NCBI GenBank assembly: GCA_050633245.1
Contig: JBOEGD010000016.1
Coordinates: 90,748 to 154,747, forward strand
Source: Calditrichia bacterium
Lineage (GTDB): Bacteria; Calditrichota; Calditrichia; RBG-13-44-9; J075
Direction: 5' to 3'
DNA length: 64,000 nucleotides
Both the position numbers and the translations under genes were made by a program. Of the stretch, positions 8,916 through 47,774 are shown piece by piece. Positions within the stretch are counted from its first letter, which is position 1, and each line of letters begins with the position of its first letter. The notes beneath the pieces are model-generated. The model had not been told where the DNA came from. It saw only the letters and a program-made list of their open reading frames with translations, and did not search any database.

Positions 8916-9716
8916 CTACAACACTTTTTCCGCAATAACCGAACAGCTCAATGGCAACGACCGAGCGTCTTTTGCTGCATCAGTATAGATGTTTGAAATA
9001 TCGGTGGGATATTCGTAAAAGGCTTTTATGGCAAAACCATTGTTCAACAAGACGGTAAAAAGGTCAGACAGCGTATAGGCAAACTCATAGTGTGTTTTGC
9101 CTTGGTATTCAGTGTTTCCAAGATAGTCTAAATCGCCTGCCCCACTCAAGGTCTTCTTTGTAAAGTAATTAGCGTCGGGAAAGATCGTGAAATCGGTTTC
9201 CAGAATCTGGGTAAACGGGTGCATTTCATGAATAAGCAGTCGAGCATTTTCGGCCAACAGCGAATTTAGGTGGGCAAAGAAGCGGTTGAGATCGGGCAGC
9301 CAACATAAAGCACCAACGGTAATCATGGCGCGCTCAAACGGCTTGCCCAACATTTCCAGGTTTACATCATACACATCAGAGCGTTCGAACCGAACGCCAT
9401 TTTGCAGAGCGGTAGCCAACACACGCGCAGATTCGATTGCGGTCCCGGAAATATCCACACCCAGACACTCCCCTGCCCCTAGTCGTTTAGCCGACATCAA
9501 TTCTTCGCCGTCATTGCAGAGCAGATGAAGCACTGAGCGATCTTTAATATCCAGCTCGATAAGACGGTCGCGTAAGTTGTCGTCCAGTGCAAGAAAGTCT
9601 TGATCGTCAATAAATTGCTTCTTTATATGCTTCTTCACGGCCTGATGTCGCTCATTCACTTCCTCCCAGGCCAGGCGATTTTTATCGGTGAATTGTTTAA
9701 TGTCTCGTTTACTCAT
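8916..9716 (-). CDS. Class I SAM-dependent methyltransferase
   Basis: VLHLLCNDG, LGVDIS, GALCWLPDL, EMHPF motifs. Confidence 0.85.
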   Translation of the reverse strand: MSKRDIKQFTDKNRLAWEEVNERHQAVKKHIKKQFIDDQDFLALDDNLRDRLIELDIKDRSVLHLLCNDGEELMSAKRLGAGECLGVDISGTAIESARVLATALQNGVRFERSDVYDVNLEMLGKPFERAMITVGALCWLPDLNRFFAHLNSLLAENARLLIHEMHPFTQILETDFTIFPDANYFTKKTLSGAGDLDYLGNTEYQGKTHYEFAYTLSDLFTVLLNNGFAIKAFYEYPTDISNIYTDAAKDARSLPLSCSVIAEKVL

Positions 9717-9717
9717 A

Positions 9718-10599
9718 TCAGTCTTCCAAATGATCGCGTTTTATGTTTGGAATATCCATACTAAATGTTTGCAGCGTTTCATCGGCCAGTTCCCGATGTA
9801 CCTCTACCCGCTTAATACGATCCATAGAATCGGTAGACGTAATCAAGATTGAATCGGAGCCGTAATATGAATACTCTTTGCGTAAAATTAAGATACCGTC
9901 AATCGTATAATACTCATGCCAACTGGAAAGGCGTCCGGCAGTATCGGTGGTGTTTTTGTCGCTGAAGCGATGAAAGCCGTTTTGATAGTTTTCATCATCC
10001 CCAAACACGACGTTAAACAGCCGGGCATTGCCAGCCGGATTCAGCGGGCTTCTAAATCCTTTCGCCGTTCGCTCGGCAATACCTTGCTTAATAAACCGCC
10101 AGCCGGTATTCGTTAGCTCCGCGGCAATCTGCCTGACCAGTTTCTCATCTGCAGGGGAAAAATTGTCGAGCGGACCGATTTCATAACAATTCTTACGCTG
10201 GCTGTACTGAATATAAATACTGTCCATCGCAAAAAGCGTTAACGCTTCATTAAACCATATGGTTAGCAAACGAGCCGTGCCACCGCACTTCTTGCTAAGC
10301 TTGCGCTTCCAATCGTATCCTTTACCAACTCCGCTGTTTAATAATAGCGTTACCTTCCAGGCTGGACGACCAATATAAAGGGTATCGAGCTTATTAAATT
10401 TACGCTTTTCAATTGCTGTCCAGGCGCTGTCTTTAAGCAGGCTTTCCAGCTTGAACGGGCGCTTAAAGCTCTTCATTATCCGGCGCATGTTTCGAGTGGC
10501 GTCTTCCCGGTTTGCAGTTTTTTTTAAATAGGAGATAAACGGCTTGCGGTCTTCACCAAACAGTTTGATAATATCCAACTCTAACTGCTTTTCATCCAT
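9718..10599 (-). CDS. Hypothetical protein
   Basis: 293-aa ORF with 1- and 3-nt gaps to its neighbours; no family recognised. Confidence 0.7.
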   Translation of the reverse strand: MDEKQLELDIIKLFGEDRKPFISYLKKTANREDATRNMRRIMKSFKRPFKLESLLKDSAWTAIEKRKFNKLDTLYIGRPAWKVTLLLNSGVGKGYDWKRKLSKKCGGTARLLTIWFNEALTLFAMDSIYIQYSQRKNCYEIGPLDNFSPADEKLVRQIAAELTNTGWRFIKQGIAERTAKGFRSPLNPAGNARLFNVVFGDDENYQNGFHRFSDKNTTDTAGRLSSWHEYYTIDGILILRKEYSYYGSDSILITSTDSMDRIKRVEVHRELADETLQTFSMDIPNIKRDHLED

Positions 10600-10602: not shown

Positions 10603-13600
10603 CTACTCCGATCGCAGCGCTGGAATTAAATCACTCTTGAGCGCAATACCGATTGCAATACGACTGGCGACTGCACCAACAAGCACGACGGCTAATAATG
10701 TTCCGATTAGCTCCAGCCAGGGAATTTGTCCACTACTTTGCGCAATCACCGGGTAGACGGCAATTGCGGCGGTTATGCTGCCTACTAAAATTCCCATAAA
10801 AATCAAGAATACGTTCTCGTAGAACAACATGCTGCGGATAGATTGATTTTGATAACCAAATGCCTGCATGGTAGCCAGTTCAGAGCGACGTTCAATCACG
10901 TTGCGGATAAGAACAATGCCGAGCCCAATTGTGCCAAGCAATAGTCCCAGCGCACCAAGCGTTTGAAACACGGCGCGATAGGTGTTTTCCACAGCCTGAA
11001 ATCCGGCGAGCTTTTCAGTTGTTGAAACCACATCAAGACCGTAATCATCCAGCGTTTTTTCGAGGTCTGCTGCAACCTTCTCACCTGCTTCGGCGGAGAT
11101 ATTCAGCAGGAAATAGCGAAAGCCGGTTTCTTCCGGGAATGACTTTATAAAGTTATCTTCAGAAACTAATAGCTCGCTCTGAAAAATACTGGTCTGTAAC
11201 AGTCCAACCAGCTTTAGCTTCACCTCTTCACCGGCATTGTTTGCCATAATAAAGTTATCCCCAACGCCGATTTTCAGGATGTATTGAGCGGAGTGAGCGT
11301 CGGCAAAAGCCGGAATGCTTTCATCGCTTGTCGGCTGAGCCAGCGCTTGCCAGGGCGTTTCTTCAAAGTACTCGATAGGTCCGCTAAACTGAAAACCACC
11401 ACGTTCAACCATTGCAGGAGTCACACCCAGAATGCGCGGGCTGGTCGGTTGAAATAGATTCAGACAACTTGCGTCATCCCCGGGGCGTAAGCGCAGCGAA
11501 AAGATACTATTGCTATTCAACTCTTCGGACAGCTTATCGGAGAACCCTAAATTAAACTGATCTTCCTCATTAGTCGGATCGAGCAAAATTGGAATATCAG
11601 CCTCAGCCAAATAGCGATAGCCTCCGGTTCCGGAATCTTTTACCACTTGGTCGCCGCTAAAGTCTTTACGACTTGCACCAACCGAGATAATCATAAAACA
11701 GGCCACGGCGACCAGAGCAATACAGAGCATGCTTCTGCCCGGGTTGCGCGATGCATTACGCAACGACATACCAGCAATAGAATTGCCAATCGATCTCCGG
11801 GAAGAGGATCGCAAAAGCCATGAAGACAGCAGTAAACCGGAGGTTAACAGCAAAAAGCCACTTCCCATAAACTGACCACCGGAAGCCTGAACACCTGCCG
11901 TAATCCCACTAACTATCAGGGCAATTCCAGCGAGAAGGAAGAGAATACCCAGCCACAGGGTTATCGAACGAGACTTTCCCCGTGTCTTTGCCACCACGCC
12001 ACGCAGCAATGCCGGAATCGGCAGCTTCCTCAATCCACGTAGCGTAATCCAAATAGCAAATGATACCGCAATAACTGCACTTGTCGCCCCGGTAAAATAA
12101 CTTGCCGGGTCGGCATGAAAGTTGAGAAAGGAAGTGCCAACAGCCTCAAACCACAGCGTTCGCAATCCATGAATAATACCGCGCGCATAAAGTGTGGCAA
12201 ACAGCAGCCCCAGAATTGCACCAAGTGTAGACAACACGATTCCCTGACTCAGAAAGCGCGAGAGCACGCCACTCGGTCTATAGCCTGAAGCAAGAAGGAG
12301 CCCAACCTCGCCTGCACGCTGCTCGACGCCAAGTCTGAAGAGCAAACCGGCAAGAATTGCTGCGGAGATTATCAGGAAGAAGCTAAAACTGATAAATAGT
12401 TGACTAAAGTCCGTTGCCCCAAGCGAAGCTTTTAATCCTTCTGCTTTAACGGGACGCCAGGAAAGCCCGAGATCTGCCGGGCTAAGAGCTGCATTTAATT
12501 TCGTCTCAAGCTGCTGTTGCAACTCAGCTATGTTGCTGCCTTCTCCCGGAGCAAGACGAATTGTAGATAGCTGACCAAAGCGACTGCCCCAGAGTGCCTG
12601 TCCTGTTTTTAACGAAACGAAGGCCTTTGGGGTAGACCGAAAGTCGTCCCAATACGTTTCATCTTTTGGACGAATCTTTTCAAGATCTACTGCAAATGGC
12701 GGATCCCAATCGCGGATATTACCGACATCGCTAATTCCCGGGTATTCCGGCACGAGAGCATTATCCTCCCCAAGACCGGTCATTTTAACCACGCCACGCA
12801 CAGAAAAGGTTGAGTTGGTTTCATATAACCTGTCCCCTGCCCCAACCGCAAAATAAGTAAGCTGCAGGCTATCGCCGGCACGAGCTTTCAGGTCATCTGC
12901 CAGCCAACTGTTTAGAAGCACTTCATTTTCTTTTAGTATCGGAGCAGGTTCACCAGAGATCATCGTCAGGCGTGACAATGAGTTGTAAGGATTGTCTATT
13001 GCAACGACTGTTGAATACGGTGTCGAACGATTAGCAATGCGCATTTCATTTGCAAGATAAGAAAGGATCGGCAGATCATCTGCCTGCAGTTCATTTTGAA
13101 TGGTTGAAACGGCCGACTCAAGCTCTTCGCCGACGACATATTCTCTACTACCAACGATGACGTAGTCCAGCTTAGCTTCCAGCGTAATTCCACGATCGTG
13201 AAGGTTCGCTACGGCGGCAAACTCATTGTCCAATACGCTCACATCCGACAGTGTATTTTTTTCGGTCAGCAATAATGCATTAACCAGTCCCTGCTGCTCT
13301 ACCGCCTTTTGAACTTCGGCCATATTTACATAGGCCGTCAGCATCTGGGTTTGCTCAATCTTCAAGCCAAATCGGCCCGGTCCGCGGTTTGGAAGTACGT
13401 GCCGTAAAATCAGACGCATGCTTCGCACCACATCGGTCGTTTCCTTGCGTCCGAAGAGTGATTCACGATGAATATCGCTGGGCTTCTCGAAAGAAATGAT
13501 TATCGGATCGCCAAGATCAGCACCAAGCTCTTTTTGCAGCGCCTCATTGATAACAACTGATGGGAAATTTTGCCGATTCTGCTTTTTTAGTCCATTCAGA

Positions 13601-13980
13601 AATTCAGCCGCTTCATCGGAACCTTCTTCGTAGAATAACTGAACGAAGTCCGGCGTAATTCCAGCCAGCTGAATTCCTGTTGCACGCGTTCGGCTACTAC
13701 CGTGTATCGCACTACCGCTCAACATGATGGTCGGGGTAATGGCAGCAACGTCCTTTATGGCAGGTCTCGCATTTAACTCAGTAGCAAGGTCTTCCCGAAC
13801 GAACCCGGGGGCAATCAGAACGCGATCAATACTTCCCAATCGGTCCAGCGTTTGTTCCTTCAGGCTGCCGCGCATGGAATCGCCAACCAGGAGAGCTCCG
13901 GTAAGAACAGCCGATGCCACTGCTGCACCCATTACGACAGCAAGGTTTATTCGCCAAAAATGCTTTAGGTCTTTAAACAA
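10603..13980 (-). CDS. Large duplicated FtsX/MacB-type ABC transporter permease
   Basis: TGALLVGDSMRGSL; two 4-TM FtsX blocks (EQRAGEVGLLLASG, ERRSELATMQAFG) with large periplasmic domains; TTG start after GGAG. Confidence 0.9.
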   Translation of the reverse strand: MFKDLKHFWRINLAVVMGAAVASAVLTGALLVGDSMRGSLKEQTLDRLGSIDRVLIAPGFVREDLATELNARPAIKDVAAITPTIMLSGSAIHGSSRTRATGIQLAGITPDFVQLFYEEGSDEAAEFLNGLKKQNRQNFPSVVINEALQKELGADLGDPIIISFEKPSDIHRESLFGRKETTDVVRSMRLILRHVLPNRGPGRFGLKIEQTQMLTAYVNMAEVQKAVEQQGLVNALLLTEKNTLSDVSVLDNEFAAVANLHDRGITLEAKLDYVIVGSREYVVGEELESAVSTIQNELQADDLPILSYLANEMRIANRSTPYSTVVAIDNPYNSLSRLTMISGEPAPILKENEVLLNSWLADDLKARAGDSLQLTYFAVGAGDRLYETNSTFSVRGVVKMTGLGEDNALVPEYPGISDVGNIRDWDPPFAVDLEKIRPKDETYWDDFRSTPKAFVSLKTGQALWGSRFGQLSTIRLAPGEGSNIAELQQQLETKLNAALSPADLGLSWRPVKAEGLKASLGATDFSQLFISFSFFLIISAAILAGLLFRLGVEQRAGEVGLLLASGYRPSGVLSRFLSQGIVLSTLGAILGLLFATLYARGIIHGLRTLWFEAVGTSFLNFHADPASYFTGATSAVIAVSFAIWITLRGLRKLPIPALLRGVVAKTRGKSRSITLWLGILFLLAGIALIVSGITAGVQASGGQFMGSGFLLLTSGLLLSSWLLRSSSRRSIGNSIAGMSLRNASRNPGRSMLCIALVAVACFMIISVGASRKDFSGDQVVKDSGTGGYRYLAEADIPILLDPTNEEDQFNLGFSDKLSEELNSNSIFSLRLRPGDDASCLNLFQPTSPRILGVTPAMVERGGFQFSGPIEYFEETPWQALAQPTSDESIPAFADAHSAQYILKIGVGDNFIMANNAGEEVKLKLVGLLQTSIFQSELLVSEDNFIKSFPEETGFRYFLLNISAEAGEKVAADLEKTLDDYGLDVVSTTEKLAGFQAVENTYRAVFQTLGALGLLLGTIGLGIVLIRNVIERRSELATMQAFGYQNQSIRSMLFYENVFLIFMGILVGSITAAIAVYPVIAQSSGQIPWLELIGTLLAVVLVGAVASRIAIGIALKSDLIPALRSE

Positions 13981-13992: not shown

Positions 13993-14352
13993 TTAAATCC
14001 ATTCACAGGTCTCAACAGTCTGCTCACAGTTAATATTACCAGTGTGCGATGTCGAGGCGGGTTCAAACAACATGATAAGTGCTTCTTTTTTAGCAATCGG
14101 CTTATGTTCTACACCTTTTGGAACAACAAACAGTTCACCGTTCTTCAGGTTGATTTTGCGATCGCGTAGCTCCAGCGTCATTTCCCCTTCAATAACCATG
14201 AAAAGCTCATCTTCATTTTCATGGAAATGCCACGGCAGTTCACCTTCAATGCGCGCCAGTTTCACATGTTGGCCATTCAGCTCGGCTACAACCTTGGGCG
14301 TCCACTGATCACTGAAAAGAGAAAATTTTTCCTGCAGGTCAACTTTATTCAT
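13993..14352 (-). CDS. Cupin-domain protein
   Basis: WHFHENEDELF and GELFVVPKGVEHKP cupin motifs. Confidence 0.9.
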   Translation of the reverse strand: MNKVDLQEKFSLFSDQWTPKVVAELNGQHVKLARIEGELPWHFHENEDELFMVIEGEMTLELRDRKINLKNGELFVVPKGVEHKPIAKKEALIMLFEPASTSHTGNINCEQTVETCEWI

Positions 14353-14354: not shown

Positions 14355-15407
14355 CTACTCCTGGTTTGCAGACAGCACAACCTTTGTGCAGCGATCCAGC
14401 TTTTCATCAAAAATGCGATAGCCTTCTTTGCCTTCAGACAGGTCCATTCGATGGGAGATAAGCGACGTAACATCATATTTTTGCTGCTGCAGCAAAGGAA
14501 TAAGTGTTGGTAAGTAGCGCTGAACCGGGCAACGCCCGGTTTTATAGCTAAGGTTTTTATTGTAAAGATCTACCGGTGAGAAGGCAAAACCACTTGTTGT
14601 GTGCACACCCACCGTTGAAATGGTTCCGCCGGGTCGAACAAGTTTATATGCCAACTGCTGTGCCGCCGGACTACCAACGACTTCCAGTACGGCTACCGGT
14701 CCACGCCCAATTGTGGCATCGTAAATTTTATCTTTGCTCGATTCATCGGACAGGATCGGTGTTGCCCCAAATTTCTCAGCAACTTCCAGGCGCCATGGCA
14801 CCAAGTCCAGCGCAAAAATTTGCCCTACGCCCATTTCGCGAAGAGAAAGTATGGCTAGAATTCCAACCGGACCACAGCCAATAACGGCATAACTATCAGA
14901 AGGATTCTGAACTGCCATATCCGCACAAAAATAACCGGTAGGCAGGATGTCGCAGAGCAACAGCGCTTCTTCCGGAAGAATATCTGGCGGAATTTTGGTT
15001 AGGGTATGGTCGGCCAACGGTACACGCACATATTCAGATTGCGCGCCCTGCAGACCAACCCCGTTTTCAACCCAACCGAAAAGCTGCCCGGTTGAGCAGC
15101 GGCAAGACAGATTGTCCCGGCAGCTATCACAGTTCCCACATGAGCTGAAAAAAGGACTAAAAACACGATCGCCCTTTTTAAATTGCGTTACCGCAGATCC
15201 CATATCAACAATCTCGCCAATAAATTCATGTCCCATCACCGTGCCGGGATCGATACCGCTTTCACGTCCATGATACACATGCAAATCTGAACCACAAATG
15301 GCAGTCAGAAGGGTTCGAACGATCACATCGGTGGGGTGCAGAATTGTTGGGTCTGCGAGTGAACTGTATTCAATCTGCCCCGGTTTACTAAATGTTAAAC
15401 CATGCAT
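14355..15407 (-). CDS. Zn-dependent alcohol dehydrogenase (MDR, formaldehyde-dehydrogenase-like)
   Basis: ICGSDLH, GHEFIG, CGNCDSC..C structural Zn, CDILPTG, GCGPVG. Confidence 0.92.
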   Translation of the reverse strand: MHGLTFSKPGQIEYSSLADPTILHPTDVIVRTLLTAICGSDLHVYHGRESGIDPGTVMGHEFIGEIVDMGSAVTQFKKGDRVFSPFFSSCGNCDSCRDNLSCRCSTGQLFGWVENGVGLQGAQSEYVRVPLADHTLTKIPPDILPEEALLLCDILPTGYFCADMAVQNPSDSYAVIGCGPVGILAILSLREMGVGQIFALDLVPWRLEVAEKFGATPILSDESSKDKIYDATIGRGPVAVLEVVGSPAAQQLAYKLVRPGGTISTVGVHTTSGFAFSPVDLYNKNLSYKTGRCPVQRYLPTLIPLLQQQKYDVTSLISHRMDLSEGKEGYRIFDEKLDRCTKVVLSANQE

Positions 15408-17749: not shown

Positions 17750-18436
17750 TTAAGAAGTTTTTTGAATTTCACCTTGTTGAAGCTGAAAGCGGCGTGGAAA
17801 CAATCCAGCCAGCTCTTCGCTATGCGTTACCGTAATCATGATGCTCTGCATTTCCTTATGGAGTTCAAAGAGCAAGTTAGCAACCATCATCGCATTGTCA
17901 TGATCGAGGTTTCCGGTTGGTTCGTCGCAGAGAATCAGTGCGGGAGAATTGATTAGTGCGCGGGCAATGGCGACACGCTGTCTTTCACCACCCGAAAGCT
18001 CCGCAGGCAGGTGGTTGAGGCGCTGGGTAAGTCCAACGCGATCGAGCAATTTTTTCGCTCGATCTTTTTGTGCATTGCGATCGCCGCGAAAAGCAAGCGC
18101 GGGAACCATTACGTTTTCCAGCACATTGTACTGCGGCATCAAATGATGATCCTGAAAGACAAACCCGATCATGCTATTTCGAAAATGCGCCAGCTTGCCG
18201 GCTTTTAGTTCAAAGGGGTTTTGATCATTCACCATAATCTGACCGGATGTTGGATTGTCGAGCGTGCCGATTAAATGAAGAAGAGTGCTTTTCCCCGAGC
18301 CGGATGGGCCGGTTATCGCGACAGAGTCTCCGCCGGACATCTTAAAGCTGATGTTTTTCAACACCTCCAAGTCGGTAGCGCCCTTGTAGGTTTTGAAAAC
18401 GTGGTCGACGATTAGATTCACAGTTTCAGCGGACAA
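17750..18436 (-). CDS. LolD/MacB-type ABC ATP-binding protein
   Basis: [45 protein letters not shown]. Confidence 0.95.
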
Positions 18437-39165: not shown

Positions 39166-39169
39166 ATCG

Positions 39170-40600
39170 TTAGGCCAATGTCGCCTGAACATGCAGCGCA
39201 CGCTGGCGGTAAAGATGTTCGAACAAGTTACCTTCATGCGGCTGATCCCAGGCAATTTTCATGGTAGGAACCGGTCCAATGTTCAAACGCTCTACATTCG
39301 GCGATGCAAATAATTCATTGACATAGTTCTGATCCTTTGTAATTGCCGAAACAACCAGAGTTGGCCCCATCTCATTCAGAATGCGATCCTGCGGCACTTC
39401 CACCACCGTTACAAACGGAAACAAGTATTCGCTGGATGCCAGTGGATGCTGCGGGTCTTCACAGTAGACAACCGTCGGTAGCAGAAATACGCAGTCATCA
39501 AGCTCTACCAGTCGGCTACCCTCACGGTATTTTGCCGTCAGGTCTTCAGCACCTTCGGTCTGCAGCTGACTATCTATTGCATCATTCAGCATATAGGCCA
39601 GCTTCTTATTGGCAAAAGCTGCGATTTGGGCATTCGGATCATCCATCGTCGTTGCAGTAACCTTGGCAAGGCGCTTCGCCAGTTCTTCAGCAATTTCACG
39701 TCCACGACGCGGCACCCAAAGTCCTGAAGCATTGATGCAGGAACGTCCGCCATTTGCAACAACGGAATGTTCTACCACATCGAGATGCTGATTAAAATCG
39801 TCTACCTGGTCTTCACCAAAGAGGACCTTACTCCAGCCCGGTCCATGAATCTGAACGCGTTTGTCGTTCTTCCATGGTGCAACCGTGTTCTTATCACCAA
39901 AGAACATGGAACGACCGGTGCGCAGTAAAATTTCACGTGCGCCATCATAGCTGGTGGGATAGTAGCCAAAAACTTCCGGCGGACAACCGGCAGCCATAAA
40001 AGACTGTGCAATGCGATAAGGCGTCCACGGCTCCTGACTACCCGGCTTTAGCACAACCGGCACCTTCAGGGCGATGGCTTGAATCCAGAGCGAGTGAACC
40101 CCGGGCGAATTGCTCGGCAAAATAGCTCCCAGAGCATTGGTTTCGCAGAGAAAATTTAGCGGCCTGCCATCTTGCTCAACCCAGCCTTTATCGAGAATGG
40201 ACAGATCGAGACCGCGGGTAAGTCCACCAAGCACTTCTTCCATGCCTTCCATAACCAGCGTTATTTTTGCCATATTGGTTCGGCAAAGTGCCTCCGGCAT
40301 TCCGGTAGTGGCAGACAAATTGGTAATGTACTCTTCCGGTGTTTGAGTGCCGTCTCCCATCGGGAGTTCGCTTTCATTGAAGTATTTCGCGGCTCGCTTA
40401 CACATGTCCAGCAACTCACGAATCGGAATAGCATCCAGAACCTTTTTATTATGGGCGGCATCGCGCATATCTTTGTTAATCAATCCGGGATTGGCCTGAC
40501 TCATTTCTGCAACCGGCTCTCCGGTGCGGAAATGGGGAATCGTAACCGTAGTGAGGCTTTTATACGGTTTCCCGGCTCGTAATATGGGTATATGAATCAT
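39170..40600 (-). CDS. Atypical ALDH-fold protein, EhpG/acyl-reductase-like
   Basis: PSNSPGV (Asn), LKPGSQEP, NGGRSCINAS (catalytic Cys), EYLFPF; HGPGWSK replaces ELGGK. Confidence 0.82.
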   Translation of the reverse strand: MIHIPILRAGKPYKSLTTVTIPHFRTGEPVAEMSQANPGLINKDMRDAAHNKKVLDAIPIRELLDMCKRAAKYFNESELPMGDGTQTPEEYITNLSATTGMPEALCRTNMAKITLVMEGMEEVLGGLTRGLDLSILDKGWVEQDGRPLNFLCETNALGAILPSNSPGVHSLWIQAIALKVPVVLKPGSQEPWTPYRIAQSFMAAGCPPEVFGYYPTSYDGAREILLRTGRSMFFGDKNTVAPWKNDKRVQIHGPGWSKVLFGEDQVDDFNQHLDVVEHSVVANGGRSCINASGLWVPRRGREIAEELAKRLAKVTATTMDDPNAQIAAFANKKLAYMLNDAIDSQLQTEGAEDLTAKYREGSRLVELDDCVFLLPTVVYCEDPQHPLASSEYLFPFVTVVEVPQDRILNEMGPTLVVSAITKDQNYVNELFASPNVERLNIGPVPTMKIAWDQPHEGNLFEHLYRQRALHVQATLA

Positions 40601-40629: not shown

Positions 40630-41718
40630 TTAATAAACACCTACAACGACTGACTGCTGAAAGCGCGAGAACAAACGCAGGTTCGATACGCCATCCCAGG
40701 GATAGGCATCAATCGGTTCAGCGCGTTCACCTTCATCGCGTTCTAGGAATCGTGGCATAAAGAATTCTTTAGTCAGCGTGGTTAAGATAACACGTCCGGT
40801 TTCACCATAATCAACAAGCTCATCAGGGTTGTCCGGATTGACCAGTTCAAACACAGCACGTGGATGCGGACCATAATAGGTAATGGCGTAATCGTCTTTC
40901 TGATCGAATGGCTTATTACAGGCCAGTCCCATTAGCGTGTTGCCATAGGTTGGTTGAAAATCGATTCCGGGAATCAACTCTTCACGTGCGAAGCGATGAA
41001 ATTGCGCATTCATCTCGGTTCCACCGCAAAAAATACCGGTTACACCATGCTTGACGAGCGAGATTTTCTCACAGAGAGACTCAAGTAGCTTCGGCGTGGT
41101 AAACACGCATTTTATATTGTCATGGGCACGAAGAATTTTCAGCGCCTGATCGATAACGTGTTGCTTATACAGCTCGAGCTCCTGCATCTTGCCGGCTTTA
41201 ATGAGCTTGTTTACCCAGCGCGGATCGAGATCGACAAAAAAGCAGATACCGCCGCGGTGCTGAGCCAGATGCTCTACAGCCAGGCGCAAACGACGTGGCC
41301 CACTCGGACCAAGCATCAACCAGTCACCGCCTTTGGGGAAGGTCTCATCAGAAAGCGTTTCGCTGAACATTTCATAATCCGTCCGAAAATCGTTAATATT
41401 TATACGCGATTTCGGTACGCCGGTTGAGCCACCGGTTTCAAATATATTAATCGGACTATTTGCATACGGTTTCGGCACCCATCGTCTCACCGGGCCACCA
41501 CGCAGCCATTCGTCCTGAAAATGACCAAGGATTTTAAGATCGTTGTAACCACCGATCTCTTTGCGCGGATCAAAGTCCAGGTTCTCCGCGTAGTTCAGCC
41601 AGAAGGGACAACCGGTTTCAGGACTAAAGTGCCAGTCTACAATTTCGCGAACGTGAGTGTCCAGCTTATCCTGTGCTGCCGCAATCTTTTGAGACAGCGA
41701 TTTATCTAGAATATCCAT
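40630..41718 (-). CDS. Stand-alone truncated adenylate-forming enzyme, EhpF-like (phenylacetate-CoA ligase/LuxE superfamily)
   Basis: WHFSPETGCPFW, FETGGSTGVPK P-loop, DLDPRWV, GGT, TYGNT, VDYGETGRV.LT.L, ERD; no C-terminal lid domain; ATG 41718 after GAGGA. Confidence 0.8.
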   Translation of the reverse strand: MDILDKSLSQKIAAAQDKLDTHVREIVDWHFSPETGCPFWLNYAENLDFDPRKEIGGYNDLKILGHFQDEWLRGGPVRRWVPKPYANSPINIFETGGSTGVPKSRININDFRTDYEMFSETLSDETFPKGGDWLMLGPSGPRRLRLAVEHLAQHRGGICFFVDLDPRWVNKLIKAGKMQELELYKQHVIDQALKILRAHDNIKCVFTTPKLLESLCEKISLVKHGVTGIFCGGTEMNAQFHRFAREELIPGIDFQPTYGNTLMGLACNKPFDQKDDYAITYYGPHPRAVFELVNPDNPDELVDYGETGRVILTTLTKEFFMPRFLERDEGERAEPIDAYPWDGVSNLRLFSRFQQSVVVGVY

Positions 41719-41754
41719 AAGTTCCTCATTATAAAGCATCAGGTTTGGGGTTCG

Positions 41755-43908
41755 TTATTCTCCGATTCCAAAAAGATGGCTTTGGCCGCGAACGAATATC
41801 ATACCATCTGCAATGGCCGGCGTGGCCATCACCACTTCTCCAACATCATTCTGAGCCACAATGCTATAGCTATCGCCGGCATCAGCTACGTAAATTGTTC
41901 CATCCTCACTGGCAAGGTAGATCAAACCGTCGGCAGCAACGGGAGACGCAGAGAATGCATAACCGCCACCACGTCCACCAAGACGCTCCCTAAACTTGCG
42001 TTCGCCGGTCAGTGCATCAAAGCAGCTAAACGTGCCGTTATTGGTACAAACAAACAGATTCTTCTCATAAATAATCGGCGTCGGCATATAAGGGCCACCA
42101 CGCTGAGTACTCCAGGAGATGTGATCACTGGACGTTTCGCCTTCGGCAAGAGAAATATCTCCTTTTGCGCCCGGTTTTATAACATAAATCGGTTGAATGG
42201 GTCGATAGCCACTGGAAATGTAAAACATTCCATGAGCGACAAACGGCGTCGGAACAGCAATTTCCGAATTGCCTTTTAGCGTCCAAATCTCAGCACCCGT
42301 TTCAGGATTGTAGCCACGAATGCCGTGCGTGCCATTTGTCAGAAGCTCAGCCGCATCACCATCTGAATAAACGGTAGGACTAGCCCAGGAAGGAATCTCA
42401 TCGCGATCGGTCTTCCAGCGCAGCTTACCGTCTTTCAAACCATAAGCAGCGATATAAGAGTCTTTCTGCTTATCACACTGTACAATCACCATATCGCGAT
42501 AAATGATCGGTGAACTGGCATGTCCCCACTGATAGTCAGGATCGTAAAACCACCCTGAATCGAGATAACCAAGATCCTGCTTCCACAGCAGTTCTCCGTC
42601 AATATTGTAGCAGAATAAACCTTCTGCGCCAAACAGGGCAACAACGTATTTACCATTTGTTACCGGCGTTGAATTTGCCTGAGTGGCTTTGGTATGCCTT
42701 TTTACTTGCGGCACCCCCCGATACGCCTCGCGCTCCCATATGATGCTGCCATTCTTCTTGTTGATACAATAGACGCGCCAGGAATGCTCGGAAACATCAG
42801 CGTCTGGCGCCACGTCACCATACAAGCCAACACGTAGTGCAGAGGATGTATCACTGCTTAGCGCGGTAGTTATAAAAAGTCGGTCTTTCCAAATTATCGG
42901 ACTGGAATGAGCCAATCCTGGAATGGGCGTTTTCCACTTGATATTTTTGCCGCTCTCGACATCCCACTCAACAGGCGGGAACTGCTTATCGGCAACGCCT
43001 GTTGCCCCCTGTCCACGAAATGAAGGCCAATTTTGAGCAACAACTTTGCCTTTAGGGCGAATGCTCGGTGCAGCCTCTTCCACAACGGCAGACTTTTCTT
43101 CTTCCGGCTGGCTGCGCTTAAAAATAAACTTTGAATTCCCCTGCTCCAGTTCGAAGCTCTCGGCTTCGCTTGTTCCTTGTGGGAAGCGAACCGTAATACC
43201 CTCAAATTCTACGGACTTGAATGTCGTCTCATCTTCCGGAGCATAGGTTAGTGCGGGCTGTCCCGGTACTACACCTTTTAGCGAACCATTTTCGATGGAG
43301 AAGGTGAGTTTCATCCCAAAATCGCTGTTATCATATTTTCCGACATAACGCTTAAGAACTGACTCCGATACCTTTTGCTCTTTCGGCTTCTCAATCGTCT
43401 TAGCTCCGGCTTTTTCCAAAGCTGCAACCATTTCAGGTTTCTCACCACTCTTCGCTGTAGCAAGGGCGCGGGAAAGCGCATCCGCATCGGCCTTTCCGCT
43501 TTCCAGAACGACCTGCAAAAGCTCTGCGTTATTTTCCTGAACCGCTGTTAACAGCACAGCATCTGCGCCTTCGGAACCACGTTCTAACAAAATTTTAACA
43601 ACGGTAGCATGCTTATTGTAAGAAGCCCAATCAATAGCAGACGCGCCATAGAAAGTATCTTTACGATTTAGCTCTGCGCCTTTATCGAGCAGTAGTGTAA
43701 CAAGCTCAACATTTCCGCGATCACAGGCATAAGTAAGTGCCGTCACTTCATAGCGTCCGGTGGCGTTTACGTCTGCACCGTCAGCTAAAAGCTGCTTTAC
43801 TTTTACAACATCGCCGGCACGAACAGCTTCCAGAAAAGCTTCATCGTTCTCTCCAGCAAAGAGAGACATAGCGCTAAAGAGGAGAAAAAACATGGTATAA
43901 ATCCGCAT
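41755..43908 (-). CDS. Exported ankyrin-repeat + DUF3471-like + PQQ-like beta-propeller fusion
   Basis: Signal peptide; GADVN/TALTYA/GAELN ankyrin repeats; LKRYVGKY domain; NWPSFRG, PGLAHSSP, HTKATQANSTP, WGHASSP. Confidence 0.88.
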   Translation of the reverse strand: MRIYTMFFLLFSAMSLFAGENDEAFLEAVRAGDVVKVKQLLADGADVNATGRYEVTALTYACDRGNVELVTLLLDKGAELNRKDTFYGASAIDWASYNKHATVVKILLERGSEGADAVLLTAVQENNAELLQVVLESGKADADALSRALATAKSGEKPEMVAALEKAGAKTIEKPKEQKVSESVLKRYVGKYDNSDFGMKLTFSIENGSLKGVVPGQPALTYAPEDETTFKSVEFEGITVRFPQGTSEAESFELEQGNSKFIFKRSQPEEEKSAVVEEAAPSIRPKGKVVAQNWPSFRGQGATGVADKQFPPVEWDVESGKNIKWKTPIPGLAHSSPIIWKDRLFITTALSSDTSSALRVGLYGDVAPDADVSEHSWRVYCINKKNGSIIWEREAYRGVPQVKRHTKATQANSTPVTNGKYVVALFGAEGLFCYNIDGELLWKQDLGYLDSGWFYDPDYQWGHASSPIIYRDMVIVQCDKQKDSYIAAYGLKDGKLRWKTDRDEIPSWASPTVYSDGDAAELLTNGTHGIRGYNPETGAEIWTLKGNSEIAVPTPFVAHGMFYISSGYRPIQPIYVIKPGAKGDISLAEGETSSDHISWSTQRGGPYMPTPIIYEKNLFVCTNNGTFSCFDALTGERKFRERLGGRGGGYAFSASPVAADGLIYLASEDGTIYVADAGDSYSIVAQNDVGEVVMATPAIADGMIFVRGQSHLFGIGE

Positions 43909-44014: not shown

Positions 44015-45475
44015 TTACATATTTGCGTCTATTGCAAACAATGTCGTGCGGCTGGCAATATACAGAACACCATTATAAACGGTTGGCGTAGAGTATACTG
44101 CGCTACCCATGTTTACTTCGTGAATCAGCTCTTTGGTTTTAGAAGCGCGAAGTACTGCAACATCGCCGTCTTCATCACCAATATAAACCTTACCATCCGT
44201 AACAAATGGTGATCCCCAAATGGCAGCAAATGTATCATAAATCCAGTGCTCTTTACCAGTGTTTACATCCAGGCAATACAGAAAACCGCTCAGATCGGAA
44301 ATGAACATCAGGTCGTCGATAATTGCGGCGGTTGCCATGGTGCGATTGAAGTCATCACCACTGCGCTGCCAAATATTACCGGTTTCGGTAATGTCTCCGG
44401 TTTGGGAAGCATCGATGCAATACAAGTTACCAGGTGCTTCGCCGTGCTCCGGATCTTGTCCAACGCCAAGATAGACTTTACCATCCAGAAATACCGGAGT
44501 TGAGATCAGATTATTGCGCGTACCGGAACCACCAAGAATCCACTTGGAATCCTTCGGGTTACAGTCAAATTGCCAGATCAGGTCACCGGTTTTCGGATCG
44601 AAGCTATATGCAACTCCATCCCCGCCGGGAAAAACCACCTGCTCACGGCCACCAGCTATACCATAAGCCGGATTGGCCCAAGTACCGTGAAGGATATCTT
44701 CACCGGGAAGGTTGTTTTCCCAAACAACTTCACCGCTATTCTTGTTAATGGCAAGAAAGCTGGGTGCTTCAGGCGAAGGAATAATGATATGGCTTTCATC
44801 GACACCATTCCCGGTCGTTAAATAAAGCATGTCTCCGACAAGCAATGGGCAACCAACAGCCAGGTTATGCGGGAATACATCCAGCTCATCGATGGTATCC
44901 AACTTCCAGATAATATCTTCATCGATTTTGCTGTTTTCAACTTCATCCTTGTACGGTCCGCGATTTTCACCGTCCAGGAAACCATCCAGATCAGCAGCAA
45001 TCACTTCAGCGCGATTAGACACATAATAAATAATGTCGCCTTCAATAGCAGGTGTCGAGCAAATGCCCTGCAGCGGCCAGTCATTTACCATACCAGACGG
45101 CAGCTTGGCGTGGGCTGCCTGCCAGAGAAATTCACCCTTGTCTTCAGTAAAAACCATCAGGTTTCCGCGATCGCCACCCAGCTTGGGATTGCGAACAGCT
45201 TCATTGTTGGTGGCAATAACTACTTTGCCGTCAACAACCTGCGGGTTGGTATAGGTTTGTGATCCCAGCTTGGCAGTCCACTTAATGTGCTTACCGGTTT
45301 CCGGATCCCAGCTATGCGATATTCCGGTTGCTTCCTTTACCATATTGCGCGTAGCATCAAATCCATACATTGTCAGCACCGGAGCATCGGCCGATTTATC
45401 AGATTTCGTCTCCCTAGCTCCCGGTGTACTTACCAGAAGCAAGAGCAGTATAACTGCAACTATTTTTAACATCAT
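44015..45475 (-). CDS. Exported PQQ-like beta-propeller protein with His/acidic motifs
   Basis: Signal peptide; LGSQTY, DWPLQGICSTP, FPHN, TGNGVDESH, ILHGTW, GQDPEHGE, WGSP, GDEDGD. Confidence 0.88.
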   Translation of the reverse strand: MMLKIVAVILLLLLVSTPGARETKSDKSADAPVLTMYGFDATRNMVKEATGISHSWDPETGKHIKWTAKLGSQTYTNPQVVDGKVVIATNNEAVRNPKLGGDRGNLMVFTEDKGEFLWQAAHAKLPSGMVNDWPLQGICSTPAIEGDIIYYVSNRAEVIAADLDGFLDGENRGPYKDEVENSKIDEDIIWKLDTIDELDVFPHNLAVGCPLLVGDMLYLTTGNGVDESHIIIPSPEAPSFLAINKNSGEVVWENNLPGEDILHGTWANPAYGIAGGREQVVFPGGDGVAYSFDPKTGDLIWQFDCNPKDSKWILGGSGTRNNLISTPVFLDGKVYLGVGQDPEHGEAPGNLYCIDASQTGDITETGNIWQRSGDDFNRTMATAAIIDDLMFISDLSGFLYCLDVNTGKEHWIYDTFAAIWGSPFVTDGKVYIGDEDGDVAVLRASKTKELIHEVNMGSAVYSTPTVYNGVLYIASRTTLFAIDANM

Positions 45476-45506
45476 ATCTTAAATTCTCCTCAGAAAAATT
45501 TTATGC

Positions 45507-47774
45507 TTACTTTGCTGTTACTTTCACATTGTCGTAATAGTGCTCGGTATAAGATACCCCGATAATTCCCGGGCTACCCTGCATTACCGGATACGGATCT
45601 TCAGTCGTAATTGACCAATCTGTCGGCTCAGCTTCGTCTCGTGGCCAAACCTTACCGCGGATAATTGCTTTACCGCCTTCATAGGAGACATCGAGCTTCA
45701 TCGTATACCAGCGATTCTCTTCCCACTTAAACGGCACTACTTCCTGAATACGGTATTCCGAGACCCAGGAGCGCAGTTCCAGGCGATTGCGCTTACCCAT
45801 CAAGTCCATTTCGTAGCCATGAGAGATTAGTCCAATATCCGAACGCTTACGCTTGTTCCGCTGATCCATAAAATCGGTCTGAATCACGTAGCCCTTCATG
45901 TCCGACGGTCCAAAATAAGTAGAATGACGCTGAATACCTCTCTTTGCGAGCGGCTTTGAAAGTACCTTATTACCATCTTCCAGCGTTTTTACAATGAACT
46001 TACCACCGGGTGATCGCGAACTGCTTGTGCCAATCCACGGGCTCGGATTCCCACCATCCTCAATATCTTCAAAGTCTTCCGTCCAAGGCAAATTGGGGAA
46101 TACCCGAACGCGAGCGGTTCCACTGACTCCGTCTACCGTCGCCATAACTTTACCGGCATGCATTTTTTTCATGTTCGTTGGAAACGTCATGCTTCCATCG
46201 GAAGCAATTGAACCCTCAACACCCTGCAGTTTCCATTCAGCAGCGGACTCACGCAGAAAGCGGCCAGCCTGATCGAACAAACGTGCACGGAAGGTGACCT
46301 TATCACCGGCACGAGCATCGAGTTCGGCAGGAACAACCTGTACCCAGGCTACCGCAGCGTCTTTGGTAGACTGCGGTTCAGCCAACACACGCTCCGGCAT
46401 TTTGCCAGTGACGAAAGGACGCGCTTTATCGCCAAGGCAATAAACGCCTACCTCGGTAGCGAAATATACACGGCCATAAGCAATCGCTACAGATCCATAT
46501 ATCTCTGCCGCGCGCTCTTCAGTTTTCATATGAATTTCTTCTTCGTCCAAAACCTCAACGCCGGTAGCGGAAGGCTTGAGGATATACATGCGACCATTTG
46601 TTTCAGTCACATAAATTTTGCCGTCAGCCCAAACCGGAGACGGTCGGCCGATTGTTCCAAGGCTATGCTCCCACATTTTCTCGCCGGTTTTGGCATTTAG
46701 GGCATACATCATTGCGGCATTGTCAATTGCGTAGATAACGCCATCTTTAATCATAGGTGATGAGTTACCGATTTCTGCATCATATCGCCATACTTCGTTT
46801 GTCTTTGTAATGTCGCCACTACCGCTGGCGTTAATCGCTACTAAACGTCCCATTTGCGGGGTATCAACATTTTCTTCACTATGCCCGGCATACACCATAT
46901 TCCCATCGATAACAACAGAAGAGTTCATTCCACGCTTGCTCAGCTTGAATTCCCAAACCTTTTCACCGGTACGGGCTTTCATAGCGTAAACCGTTCCATC
47001 AGCGTTTCCGCCAATCAGCAGACGTTCGCCATCAATAATTGCAACGCTTGGCATGGTATAAATGTTTGGTGCTTTAAAAACACCGCTCGGTGTTGCGGTC
47101 CAAACGGTTTCACCGGTGCGCTTATCGAAAGCAAAATGACGGTGTTTCATTGGCTTCTGCTCACCCCAACCAGCGGAGACATAACCGGTGATGAGCAAAT
47201 CTTCGTCGATTAGCGGACTGGTGCTACGGCCGCCATAACCGGTGCGGGTTCCAAATTCTTCCGTAAGAGAACGCTTCCAAACAATCTTGCCATCTTTGTC
47301 GAAGCAGTGTATCATCGCGCCACTACCAACCGCATAAACATAACCGGTTTCAGCGTCCCCACCCATGCTAGCCCAACCCAATCGATTAAACGGAACGGAT
47401 GTTAAGCGCATATTGTAGCGGTATTCCCAGAGCTGGGCGCCGGTTCCGGCATCAAAACAGGCAACTATCTCCTGCTTGGAAATCCCATCTCCGGTTCTAC
47501 CGATCACATAAACACGACCGTCTTGAACTATCGGCGTTGAACGACCGATAAAGTCGGCCTTCCAAAGCAGGTTTTCACCTTCCTGAGACCAACTGTCTAT
47601 CAGGCCTTTCTCTGTAGAGACACCATTAAGCGTTGGTCCGCGCCAGTTGCGCCATTCAGTCGTTTCTACCATCTTACTGTCTTTAACCATTTTACTGTCT
47701 TTAACGTTTCCGCTGCTGCACGCGGCAAGCAGGGCAAAGATAAAGGCAGAGGCTATCAGCAAATGAAATCGCAT
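45507..47774 (-). CDS. PQQ-like beta-propeller lipoprotein with C-terminal Ig-like and concanavalin/LamG-like domains
   Basis: LLAA-C lipobox; WRNWRGP; GxxxW repeats; VQVVPAE..ARAGD Ig-like segment; WTEDFE...WYTMKL...RGKVWP..E.EP.W. Confidence 0.88.
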   Translation of the reverse strand: MRFHLLIASAFIFALLAACSSGNVKDSKMVKDSKMVETTEWRNWRGPTLNGVSTEKGLIDSWSQEGENLLWKADFIGRSTPIVQDGRVYVIGRTGDGISKQEIVACFDAGTGAQLWEYRYNMRLTSVPFNRLGWASMGGDAETGYVYAVGSGAMIHCFDKDGKIVWKRSLTEEFGTRTGYGGRSTSPLIDEDLLITGYVSAGWGEQKPMKHRHFAFDKRTGETVWTATPSGVFKAPNIYTMPSVAIIDGERLLIGGNADGTVYAMKARTGEKVWEFKLSKRGMNSSVVIDGNMVYAGHSEENVDTPQMGRLVAINASGSGDITKTNEVWRYDAEIGNSSPMIKDGVIYAIDNAAMMYALNAKTGEKMWEHSLGTIGRPSPVWADGKIYVTETNGRMYILKPSATGVEVLDEEEIHMKTEERAAEIYGSVAIAYGRVYFATEVGVYCLGDKARPFVTGKMPERVLAEPQSTKDAAVAWVQVVPAELDARAGDKVTFRARLFDQAGRFLRESAAEWKLQGVEGSIASDGSMTFPTNMKKMHAGKVMATVDGVSGTARVRVFPNLPWTEDFEDIEDGGNPSPWIGTSSSRSPGGKFIVKTLEDGNKVLSKPLAKRGIQRHSTYFGPSDMKGYVIQTDFMDQRNKRKRSDIGLISHGYEMDLMGKRNRLELRSWVSEYRIQEVVPFKWEENRWYTMKLDVSYEGGKAIIRGKVWPRDEAEPTDWSITTEDPYPVMQGSPGIIGVSYTEHYYDNVKVTAK

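Follow-up and report, generated by a model that had tools for sequence, protein, structure and literature searches.

A small adenylase of about 360 amino acids (aa) that lacks the ANL C-terminal domain, followed by a gene of the aldehyde dehydrogenase (ALDH) superfamily, is common to two described systems, EhpF/EhpG of D-alanylgriseoluteic acid in Pantoea and GriC/GriD of grixazone in Streptomyces griseus. The available text of one source places ehpF ahead of the ALDH-family gene ehpG in ehp clusters (PMC11278526), and that of another describes how GriC/GriD convert 3-amino-4-hydroxybenzoate to the acyl-AMP and then to the aldehyde (PMC10179220, citing Suzuki et al. 2007). Here we analyze a 64,000-nucleotide (nt) stretch of a Calditrichia bacterium genome (contig JBOEGD010000016.1; hereafter "the window," positions 1 to 64,000) that encodes a pair of this arrangement, and we find strong support for the conclusion that the pair is part of one ancient, co-inherited system of approximately 17 genes. 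Unlike the two described pairs, the one in the window lies within a far larger conserved cluster that includes secreted propellers, a TonB receptor, and a MacB-type extractor, is far more conserved across phyla, and is accompanied by neither phz genes nor the griH/I genes for 3-amino-4-hydroxybenzoate (3,4-AHBA).

Another point of comparison is a preprint on sponge microbiomes, the available text of which describes a "Halo_AMP" pseudoclass that combines a flavin halogenase with an AMP-binding enzyme; clusters of this pseudoclass occur in Acidobacteriota, Latescibacterota, and Poribacteria, frequently contain PQQ-like domains, glycosyltransferases, thioesterases, radical S-adenosylmethionine (SAM) enzymes, and ABC and TonB transporters, match BagE (PaaK-like), Bmp2, and BrtI, and are linked to no product in that text (10.64898/2026.08.03.742642). 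The focus of the preprint is on sponges and on a P450-containing family (CC A), and the accessible parts of it mention no carboxylate reductase, no fixed 17-gene order, and no distribution outside sponges. Judged by these textual descriptions alone, the cluster described here is likely one of the Halo_AMP clusters. Our literature search recovered no functional study of the cluster, which as a whole matches no characterized system. PQQ, phenazine, and Lux systems were considered as its identity and rejected, with PQQ models below their cutoffs and no matches to phz or Lux families. An interpretation of the window made from the letters alone (hereafter, the sequence-only reading) had drawn an analogy to mycofactocin, in which a radical SAM enzyme, a glycosyltransferase, and dehydrogenases likewise share one cluster. 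This analogy did not hold: unlike in mycofactocin, the radical SAM enzyme here is HemN-like and not of the SPASM type, the glycosyltransferase belongs to the GT4 class, the dehydrogenases are an Fe-dependent alcohol dehydrogenase (Fe-ADH), a Zn-dependent one (Zn-ADH), and an ALDH-like protein beside an adenylase, and library scans of the cluster found no MftB, MftD, MftE, MftF, or precursor peptide (MftA), with small peptide open reading frames (ORFs) not searched systematically.

Gene content, gene order, and co-inheritance

Genes were taken from an ORF map and assigned to families by Pfam and NCBIfam scans of the window ORFs; all named genes lie on the minus strand unless stated otherwise, and the three gene groups are called blocks A, B, and C. 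The genes listed in the sequence-only reading are all present, intact, and tightly spaced at the coordinates it had reported, and both libraries agree with its labels. A fourth piece lies 6.4 to 10 kb left of the window start in locus L117 (G000:C16:70748-90747), which directly adjoins the window in the same 6.35-Mb genome (G000). The members are the following, with positions in the window or, where indicated, in L117:

45507-47774, minus strand: P755, first gene of the cluster; lipoprotein with a PQQ_2/BamB-like propeller and a C-terminal region of approximately 300 aa (PQQ_2, 138.7 bits)
44015-45475, minus strand: P486, secreted eight-bladed propeller
41755-43908, minus strand: Ank-propeller 717, with signal peptide, ankyrin repeats, and propeller (Pfam Ank_2 and PQQ_2)
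40630-41739, minus strand: adenylase, 369 aa, putative EhpF/GriC type without the ANL C-terminal domain
39170-40600, minus strand: ALDH-like protein, putative EhpG/GriD-type reductase partner of the ALDH superfamily (Pfam Aldedh, 65 bits)
29384-30565, minus strand: Fe-ADH (Pfam Fe-ADH)
28253-29383, minus strand: P376, secreted propeller (Beta-prop_ACSF4, 179.6 bits versus a cutoff of 133)
26686-28038, minus strand: rSAM, HemN-like (class C type) radical SAM protein (Pfam Radical_SAM and HemN_C)
25105-26460, minus strand: P451, propeller lipoprotein adjoining the TonB receptor (PQQ_2, 144.9 bits)
22781-24964, minus strand: TonB receptor of the siderophore-receptor subfamily (Plug and TonB_dep_Rec_b-barrel)
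19755-21427, minus strand: sodium:solute symporter (SSS) with a 71-aa membrane partner, optional member (Pfam SSF)
18457-19758, minus strand: GT4 glycosyltransferase with an N-terminal CGSC motif (Pfam Glycos_transf_1)
17750-18436, minus strand: ABC ATPase of the LolD/MacB type
14355-15407, minus strand: Zn-ADH, recurrent accessory member
10603-13980, minus strand: FtsX, giant duplicated FtsX/MacB-type permease of 1125 aa (MacB_PCD and two FtsX domains)
L117 9978-11258, minus strand: PaaK-type ligase, fourth piece, outside the window
L117 11274-11834, minus strand: small membrane protein of 186 aa (half-size DMT-like permease), fourth piece
L117 11865-12314, minus strand: 4HBT thioesterase, fourth piece
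L117 12318-13589, minus strand: flavin halogenase (predicted), fourth piece

A pattern scan across phyla covered 185,579 species genomes and yielded 600 matches, 591 of which encode a relative of the adenylase. Neighborhood counts given below refer to the best 80 of these 591 adenylase loci with 10-kb flanks, at an orthologue threshold of at least 40% identity for P755, P376, and the Ank-propeller; they are lower bounds, since many loci are cut off where the contig or the flank ends. Represented among these 80 are Poribacteria, Latescibacterota, Gemmatimonadota, Acidobacteriota, Calditrichota, and a Polyangiaceae metagenome-assembled genome (MAG). Extended loci were examined in genomes of other phyla (G041 to G045), and relatives of the window's family (G003, G007, G008, and G011) were compared as well.

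Near the adenylase in other phyla, the gene order is P755-P486-adenylase-ALDH-FeADH-P376-rSAM-P451-receptor. Blocks A and B of the window follow this order exactly, which indicates that they are one operon with about 8 kb of foreign genes inserted in this genome. The full colinear order runs P755, P486, adenylase, ALDH, Fe-ADH, P376, rSAM, (P451), receptor, PaaK-type ligase, flavin halogenase, (SSS), GT4, small membrane protein, 4HBT thioesterase, ABC ATPase, FtsX; it is present as an operon in two Latescibacterota, and in Acidobacteria bacterium Mor1 (CP011806) and the Polyangiaceae MAG with one or two parts missing or displaced. Zn-ADH lies near the colinear operon in two genomes. That the blocks are independent modules, with only the adenylase-ALDH pair conserved, was considered and rejected given colinear operons that extend beyond 10 kb; GT4 was seen in just 2 of the 80 loci because block C lies beyond the 10-kb flank.

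In the genome studied here the system spans about 58 kb (G000:C16:80725-138521), and insertions have split the once single operon into four pieces. The sequence-only reading was right about the three blocks and missed what lies beyond the left edge of the window, namely, the halogenase, PaaK-type ligase, 4HBT thioesterase, and DMT permease, which are 44 to 67% identical to their Latescibacterota counterparts. Its observation of tight spacing applies inside the blocks, which are themselves parted by unrelated genes: RsgA in one gap, and an amino-acid permease+Usp gene, a hydrolase, a collagen-like gene, and a TIR gene in the other. In-block gaps are 0 to 31 nt overall, except for one of 106 nt in block A and those of 140 to 225 nt in block B. 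Block A has gaps of 31, 106, 15, and 29 nt, followed by 4 nt between the ALDH-like gene and UPF0489 if the latter starts at the ATG at 39165 (its residue M31), and in block B the Fe-ADH gene abuts P376 with a gap of 0. In block C, the gene for the 71-aa partner (about 21215-21427) overlaps SSS (19755-21215), which in turn overlaps GT4 by 4 nt; ABC, TPR, Zn-ADH, cupin, FtsX, hyp293, and methyltransferase genes follow in this order with gaps of 1 to 20 nt.

The components are also inherited together. In a comparison of 40 relatives, adenylase, rSAM, GT4, and FtsX are present in the same 7 genomes, all of the window's family; P486 is found in 6 of the 7, and the seventh is 83% complete. Five family relatives retain adjacency throughout only for the adenylase-ALDH pair, and in G008, whose genome is complete, the parts map to 1.82, 1.86, 2.21, 2.32, and 3.31 Mb, so that genes megabases apart have been kept without linkage. 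Control genes located between the blocks have other profiles: of 15 genomes from the window's family, one carries the hydrolase and none the permease. Within its own phylum the adenylase occurs in 7 of these 15 genomes and in none of 70 genomes from other families, which amounts to a patchy distribution. The view that the three blocks form one unit is therefore upheld by colinearity in other phyla and by co-inheritance even where the genes are dispersed; an absence of clustering elsewhere had been named beforehand as the outcome that would count against it, and when we looked for this we found that the genes do cluster and co-occur.

An ALDH tree of 61 sequences contains 8 changes of phylum label versus 19.4 expected for shuffled labels, with none of 200 shuffles as low, and this clustering largely by phylum argues against rampant recent transfer. 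The tree sets the window beside a Calditrichia MAG. The sequence-only reading had pointed to similar gene sets in Planctomycetota, a link not borne out among the best 80 loci, none of which is so labeled; the window groups with Calditrichota. Near-identical ALDH sequences under different phylum labels (Latescibacterota versus Gemmatimonadota) were observed in L081/L082, L086/L089, and L085/L091/L097, which could reflect inconsistent MAG naming or recent transfer.

Several variants of the cluster were also observed. One Poribacteria lineage (L025, L026, L028, L031, L033, L035, L038, and L042) carries an AAA_21 ATPase and DUF4276 pair between P755 and P486 and, with the exception of L026 (incomplete), a thiamine-diphosphate enzyme between adenylase and ALDH in 7 loci. 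A creatininase-family gene lies between ALDH and Fe-ADH in 7 loci, one of which (L071) is outside that lineage list. About 31 Poribacteria loci (e.g., L046, L054, and L063) have P755 split into two ORFs of about 445 and about 310 aa, and the cluster there also gains a Vgb_lyase/PQQ-like protein of approximately 233 aa, a sulfatase, and an M19 dipeptidase. G039, which has no adenylase, encodes adjacent distant homologs of the giant FtsX (33% identity) and GT4 (35% identity) at G039:C14:226716-232355, and the GT4-extractor module may thus also exist alone.

A predicted two-protein carboxylate reductase

The adenylase aligns over its full length with the solved structures of EhpF (PDB 3hgu/3l2k; E of about 8e-46, 7.9e-46 for 3hgu; residues 24-369 versus 21-369) and is a true EhpF homolog, in line with the "EhpF-like" label of the sequence-only reading. 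Pfam detects only its AMP-binding core, with a score below the cutoff. Across the best 80 loci in at least 6 phyla the protein is 72 to 80% identical to the query, with a mean column identity of 81%; between the window genome and genomes of four other phyla, adenylase identities are 72 to 78%, compared with 61 to 70% for RecA and 70 to 74% for a 277-aa part of EF-Tu. Conservation at this level appears to argue against an ordinary antibiotic-like metabolite.

The ALDH gene lies directly downstream, with a 29-nt gap in the window, adjacency in 5 of 5 relatives, and a position within 10 kb of the adenylase in 68 of the 80 loci. Its Cys287 is invariant among 18 sequences, and an invariant HGPGxSK motif replaces the ELGGK motif with its general-base Glu. 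The ALDH-like protein is accordingly predicted to be reductive and not hydrolytic because the catalytic Cys is kept and the hydrolytic Glu is lost, a pattern that fits an enzyme holding an acyl-thioester and reducing rather than hydrolyzing it.

Structure prediction suggests that the two proteins bind each other. The predicted complex scores 0.71, versus 0.00 for the best of three controls; this score is attained by 58 of 80 solved complexes and by 2 of 110 mismatched pairs, counts that hold only roughly here since our own alignments were used. Contact agreement is at least 86%, partner pLDDT is at least 89, and the predicted interface involves invariant residues from both proteins. Taken by its sequence features, the pair would belong to the EhpF/EhpG-GriC/GriD kind. 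A LuxE/LuxC fatty acid reductase was considered and rejected, as the Pfam scan (E<=0.001) gives only AMP-binding and Aldedh, and neither PF04443 nor PF05893, which we take to be the families of LuxE and LuxC, respectively.

Candidate tailoring, glycosylation, and export genes

The Fe-ADH gene is found in 42 of the 80 loci (49 to 59% identity) and directly follows ALDH in G041, G042, G044, and G045. The radical SAM protein carries a CxxxCxxC motif at residue 69 and falls below all NCBIfam equivalog cutoffs, including those for hemN (192 versus 325), HutW (185 versus 400), and HemW (177 versus 205); its solved relatives are HemN (1olt, 1e-33) and the class C methyltransferase NocN (9e-26), and it is thus a HemN-like protein of an undescribed subfamily. 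It lies within 10 kb of the adenylase in 31 of the 80 loci, with 54 to 63% identity.

GT4 orthologs are 48 to 55% identical in all 5 genomes of other phyla, in 4 of them within the cluster. SSS lies between halogenase and GT4 in G045 (57% identity), adjoins GT4 in G003, G007, G008, and G011, and is absent from the clusters of G041, G042, and G044; together with its small partner it is an optional member, found in the window's family and the Polyangiaceae MAG. The Zn-ADH gene is located between ABC and FtsX in G003, G007, and G011 (62 to 66% identity); in G044 and G045 (47 to 49%) its distance from FtsX is at most about 8 kb.

The ABC ATPase is LolD-like (TIGR02211, 263.6 bits versus a cutoff of 307.75), and its orthologs (52 to 62% identity) lie directly before the FtsX gene. 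All 10 of the adenylase-positive genomes from other phyla encode an FtsX ortholog (42 to 47% identity): it lies on the same strand and no more than 16 kb downstream of the adenylase in 6 of the 10, at 36 kb in one, at 83 kb in another, and megabases away in two Poribacteria, where GT4, permease, thioesterase, ABC, and FtsX genes are still together. In model searches, FtsX resembles DevC and LolCE, and the ATPase resembles LolD and DevA, in all cases with scores below the cutoffs. The pair shares the MacB periplasmic core domain, FtsX domains, and LolD-like ATPase with type VII ABC extractors of the MacB/LolCDE/DevCA kind; unlike in those, both permease halves are fused into one 1125-aa chain and all equivalog scores fall below the cutoffs. 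No MacA/DevB adaptor and no LolA-like gene was seen among the annotated cluster neighbors.

The flavoprotein of the fourth piece is predicted to be a flavin-dependent halogenase of the phenol/pyrrole type. It has the motifs GGGPAG at residue 13 and WCWYIP at residue 218, and its ten best PDB matches comprise nine chains named as halogenases and the flavoprotein 3nix (E values from 2e-58 to 4e-40); solved relatives include 8zop (2.3e-58), CndH, CmlS ("alkylhalidase"), ChlB4, PltA, and Bmp2. The ligase is PaaK-like (180 bits versus a cutoff of 700), and the small conserved membrane protein (186 aa) is similar to half-size DMT permeases, with an Atlas score of 0.98 that serves only as a lead. Beside the fourth piece we observed a 565-aa arginine-deiminase/DDAH-like protein (L117 8240-9937, minus strand) and, next to the halogenase, a 190-aa protein (L117 13591-14163, minus strand); identification of the latter as a chorismate lyase was rejected, as it has no Pfam, NCBIfam, or PDB match at E<=10.

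Secreted propellers and the TonB receptor

All five propellers of the window exceed the PQQ_2 cutoff and, by inspection of their N termini, carry signal peptides, with a lipoprotein Cys in P755 and P451; the window, 1% of the 6.35-Mb genome, thus holds 5 of its 22 distinct PQQ_2 proteins. P755 lies within 10 kb of the adenylase in 66 of the 80 loci and is 45 to 51% identical in G041, G042, and G044; an Atlas look-up of its C-terminal part gave no usable match. P376 orthologs are 40 to 42% identical in G041, G042, G044, and G045 and reach at least 40% identity in 19 of the 80 loci. P451 is found within 10 kb of the adenylase in 11 of the 80 loci, and the P451-receptor pair recurs in G041, G003, G007, G008, and G011. 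The fifth propeller, the Ank-propeller, is a lineage-specific extra, with at least 40% identity in only 3 of the 80 loci; it adjoins the adenylase in the relatives G007 and G003.

P486 is the most constrained propeller, with 190 of its 486 positions at least 95% conserved among 62 sequences, many of them Asp, Glu, or His, a conservation that appears enzyme-like. It lies within 10 kb of the adenylase in 69 of the 80 loci, and orthologs (57 to 63% identity) are present in 5 of 5 genomes in which it is not adjacent to the adenylase. Its predicted structure (AF2, pLDDT of 82) is an eight-bladed BamB-like propeller, and a fold search placed BamB first and gave only generic BamB, tetrathionate hydrolase, and PQQ-ADH matches with TM of about 0.6. 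A precedent for cooperation between a beta-propeller enzyme and a halogenase within a single pathway, in which the halide serves as a handle, is provided by CylK/BrtB, alkylating enzymes described in the available text of two sources as acting on halogenated intermediates of cylindrocyclophanes and bartolosides (PMC8916777, PMC7081238). Unlike CylK/BrtB, P486 is Sec-exported and BamB/PQQ-like, and the predicted halogenase here is flavin dependent and of the aryl type; no CylK entry is among the 60 listed of 67 PDB matches for the P486 profile.

The TonB receptor matches TIGR01783 with 275.5 bits versus a cutoff of 223.5, and its orthologs (38 to 39% identity) occupy the cluster position in G041, G044, and G045. 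The best match to PqqC in the genome reaches 64.3 bits versus a cutoff of 240, and the best match to TIGR03075, for true PQQ dehydrogenases, reaches 43.9 bits versus 480; with neither above its cutoff, "PQQ-like" here denotes a fold only. The statement in the sequence-only reading that the window contains no pqq, phz, polyketide synthase, or nonribosomal peptide synthetase (NRPS) gene agrees with our scans, in which none of these families matched among the window ORFs scanned.

Proposed function and alternative explanations

We favor, with a probability of roughly 55%, the interpretation that the system makes a halogenated, reduced, and glycosylated derivative of an aromatic acid, which would be extracted to the envelope, handled by the propellers, and recaptured by the TonB receptor. 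The membership of the halogenase, ligase, thioesterase, and permease points to an aromatic and probably halogenated substrate. In the cytoplasm, the PaaK-type ligase would activate an aromatic carboxylic acid, with the 4HBT thioesterase releasing or proofreading it; the phenol/pyrrole-type flavin halogenase would halogenate the substrate, and the HemN-like class C radical SAM enzyme would modify it at carbon. The two-protein reductase of the EhpF/GriC-EhpG/GriD type would convert the carboxylate to the aldehyde, which the Fe- and Zn-dependent alcohol dehydrogenases would probably reduce to the alcohol, and GT4 would glycosylate the reduced compound. The half-size DMT permease could carry the product across the inner membrane, the LolD-like ATPase and giant FtsX could act as a MacB-type extractor that moves it into the envelope, and the four Sec-exported BamB-like propellers might bind, transform, or use it there, while the TonB receptor, together with SSS in some lineages, would recapture the product or import a precursor. 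The sequence of acid, aldehyde, and alcohol with radical SAM chemistry, glycosylation, and MacB-type extraction had been put forward in the sequence-only reading, and its logic fits the conserved gene set.

Several considerations weigh against this assignment. The scheme can draw on no known product, substrate, or activity of any member, its sequence of enzymatic steps is wholly conjectural, and the aromatic nature of the substrate is suggested only by family resemblance (PaaK, EhpF/GriC, and phenol/pyrrole halogenases), with no aromatic-precursor gene conserved in the cluster. MacB-type machines carry no substrates across the inner membrane, and the crossing would thus depend on the DMT-like permease, an unproven Atlas lead. 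P486 gives only generic BamB/PQQ-like structural matches, which point to no particular role for the propellers. Conservation across phyla at the level of EF-Tu is unusual for specialized metabolism, and co-inheritance among relatives is by itself weak evidence, since the 7 positive genomes may be one subclade.

The same conservation favors an alternative, also raised in the sequence-only reading, in which a conserved organic prosthetic group or redox cofactor would be made by the cytoplasmic enzymes and delivered by the extractor to the periplasm. There, "empty quinoprotein-like" propellers would use it, and the TonB receptor would salvage it from outside the cell. In such a scheme, which would parallel PQQ, the PQQ dehydrogenases, and the PqqU receptor, a universally conserved, possibly halogen-activated or quinone-like aromatic glycoside would be loaded onto P486, P755, P376, and P451. 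The adenylase (72 to 78%, against 61 to 70% for RecA and 70 to 74% for the EF-Tu part) is conserved like a protein of primary metabolism, the content of the cluster barely varies across phyla, P486 is near-invariant at 190 of 486 positions rich in Asp, Glu, and His and is co-inherited when unlinked (5 of 5 genomes), the ALDH tree follows phylum (8 label changes versus 19.4 expected), and neither PqqC nor a true PQQ dehydrogenase reaches its cutoff in the genome. We nevertheless consider a cofactor possible but doubtful: the PF13360 propellers here have no demonstrated ligand or redox function, BamB comes first in the P486 fold search, halogenation and glycosylation are unusual for cofactors, and the system is dispensable, as none of the 70 genomes of other families in its own phylum carries it. 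That the product is a metallophore, a secreted metal chelator that leaves through ABC-FtsX and returns as its metal complex through the TonB receptor, appears unlikely as well. The receptor does exceed the siderophore-receptor cutoff (275.5 versus 223.5 bits), and biosynthesis, exporter, and receptor in one operon are the usual metallophore layout; moreover, pyoverdine export runs through a MacB-type pump, and both aryl-acid adenylases and 4HBT thioesterases are found among the enzymes of catecholate pathways. However, the conserved genes of the cluster include no NRPS, no NIS synthetase, no inner-membrane ABC importer for metal chelates, and no reductase, conversion of a carboxylate to an alcohol removes a ligand group, and such clusters usually diversify, whereas this one is nearly invariant.

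The GT4 and the acid-to-alcohol module would also suit an envelope glycolipid, in which an acid, once reduced to an alcohol and joined to a sugar, would be extracted to the outer membrane, as with heterocyst glycolipids or bartolosides and their DevCA-type exporters, and the resemblance of FtsX to DevC/LolCE and of the ATPase to LolD/DevA (all below the cutoffs) is in keeping with this, as are the antiSMASH matches between Halo_AMP clusters and BrtI, part of the exporter cassette for bartolosides, reported in the available text of the preprint (10.64898/2026.08.03.742642). We judge this quite improbable given that the cluster has no fatty-acid/polyketide synthase, acyl carrier protein, or acyltransferase, that both adenylases belong to aryl-acid-type families, and that no DevB or MacA adaptor was seen among the annotated cluster genes. 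Even less credence is due to catabolic import, whereby receptor, propellers, and SSS would take in an alcohol or aromatic compound for oxidation by the alcohol dehydrogenases and the ALDH and activation by the adenylases for degradation. SSS and the receptor are importers, and a logic of receptor, ALDH, ligase, and alcohol dehydrogenase of the polyethylene glycol (PEG) type exists; the halogenase, GT4, and MacB-type extractor would be out of place, though, the ALDH is without the hydrolytic Glu needed for acid release, and no downstream degradation genes are conserved. A chance neighborhood of independent housekeeping modules might be suggested by the unrelated genes that part the blocks here and by the spread of the parts over megabases in relatives, but it is excluded in practice by the colinear operon in other phyla, by co-inheritance where the parts are dispersed, and by control genes with other profiles.

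Few families of secreted bacterial proteins without an assigned function are as large as the PF13360 "PQQ-like" propellers. By tying four of them, through gene order and co-inheritance in at least 6 phyla, to a defined set of cytoplasmic enzymes, an extractor, and an outer membrane receptor, the cluster makes their function testable. That the predicted reductase equals core housekeeping proteins in conservation suggests one important molecule, as yet not isolated. With abundant sponge symbionts (Poribacteria and Latescibacterota), soil Acidobacteriota, and Gemmatimonadota among the carriers, the product could be a halogenated metabolite, metallophore, or cofactor of wide ecological occurrence.

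Inserted genes and neighbors

The remaining genes in and between the blocks are as follows:

38413-39255, minus strand: UPF0489, not conserved, partial match to peptide arginases
30835-39255, unstranded: inserted nonconserved stretch with UPF0489, TIR, collagen-like, hydrolase (plus strand), amino-acid permease+Usp, and hyp279 genes
21499-22563, minus strand: RsgA GTPase, housekeeping gene unrelated to the cluster (Pfam RsgA_GTPase)
15419-17737, minus strand: TPR protein, window-specific passenger in block C
13993-14352, minus strand: cupin, window-specific passenger in block C
9718-10599, minus strand: hyp293, 293-aa window-specific passenger in block C
8916-9716, minus strand: methyltransferase, window-specific passenger in block C

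The sequence-only reading had counted UPF0489 and the methyltransferase among the members together with the adenylase, ALDH, Fe-ADH, rSAM, GT4, ABC, FtsX, and receptor; the latter eight retain their place, while the first two have no conserved counterparts. UPF0489 is found in none of the 80 loci and in none of the regions of 5 relatives, and it was rejected as a member, its match to the peptide-arginase model being partial (50.5 bits versus a cutoff of 350). The TPR, cupin, hyp293, and methyltransferase genes have no match beside ABC/FtsX in G003, G007, G008, and G011 (at least 33% identity and at least 50% coverage) and none in G041 to G045 (at least 30% identity and at least 50% coverage), and RsgA is absent between receptor and SSS in G007, G008, and G011. 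We conclude that UPF0489, TIR, collagen-like, hydrolase, permease, hyp279, RsgA, TPR, cupin, hyp293, and methyltransferase genes are outside the system.

A low-GC patch lies inside the cluster, with a GC content of 0.348 at 36001-38000. The low-GC stretch (35714-39255) comprises the collagen-repeat gene (35714-36712), the TIR-domain gene (36767-37813), and UPF0489 (38413-39255), and looks like an inserted island that is possibly defense related. Two proteins outside the blocks, a 1479-aa protein at 4313-8752 (plus strand) and a PhoD-like phosphatase at L117 17012-18652 (minus strand), both end in a type IX secretion sorting domain (Por_Secre_tail), in keeping with an organism of the FCB group or similar to Calditrichota. 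On the other side of the cluster, the window encodes a 1027-aa AAA_22/AAA_16 (STAND-like) ATPase (50154-53237, minus strand) and a 1080-aa pentapeptide-repeat protein (56400-59642, plus strand), and between them lies a canonical ALDH (54556-55992; 316 bits) that is unrelated to the cluster.

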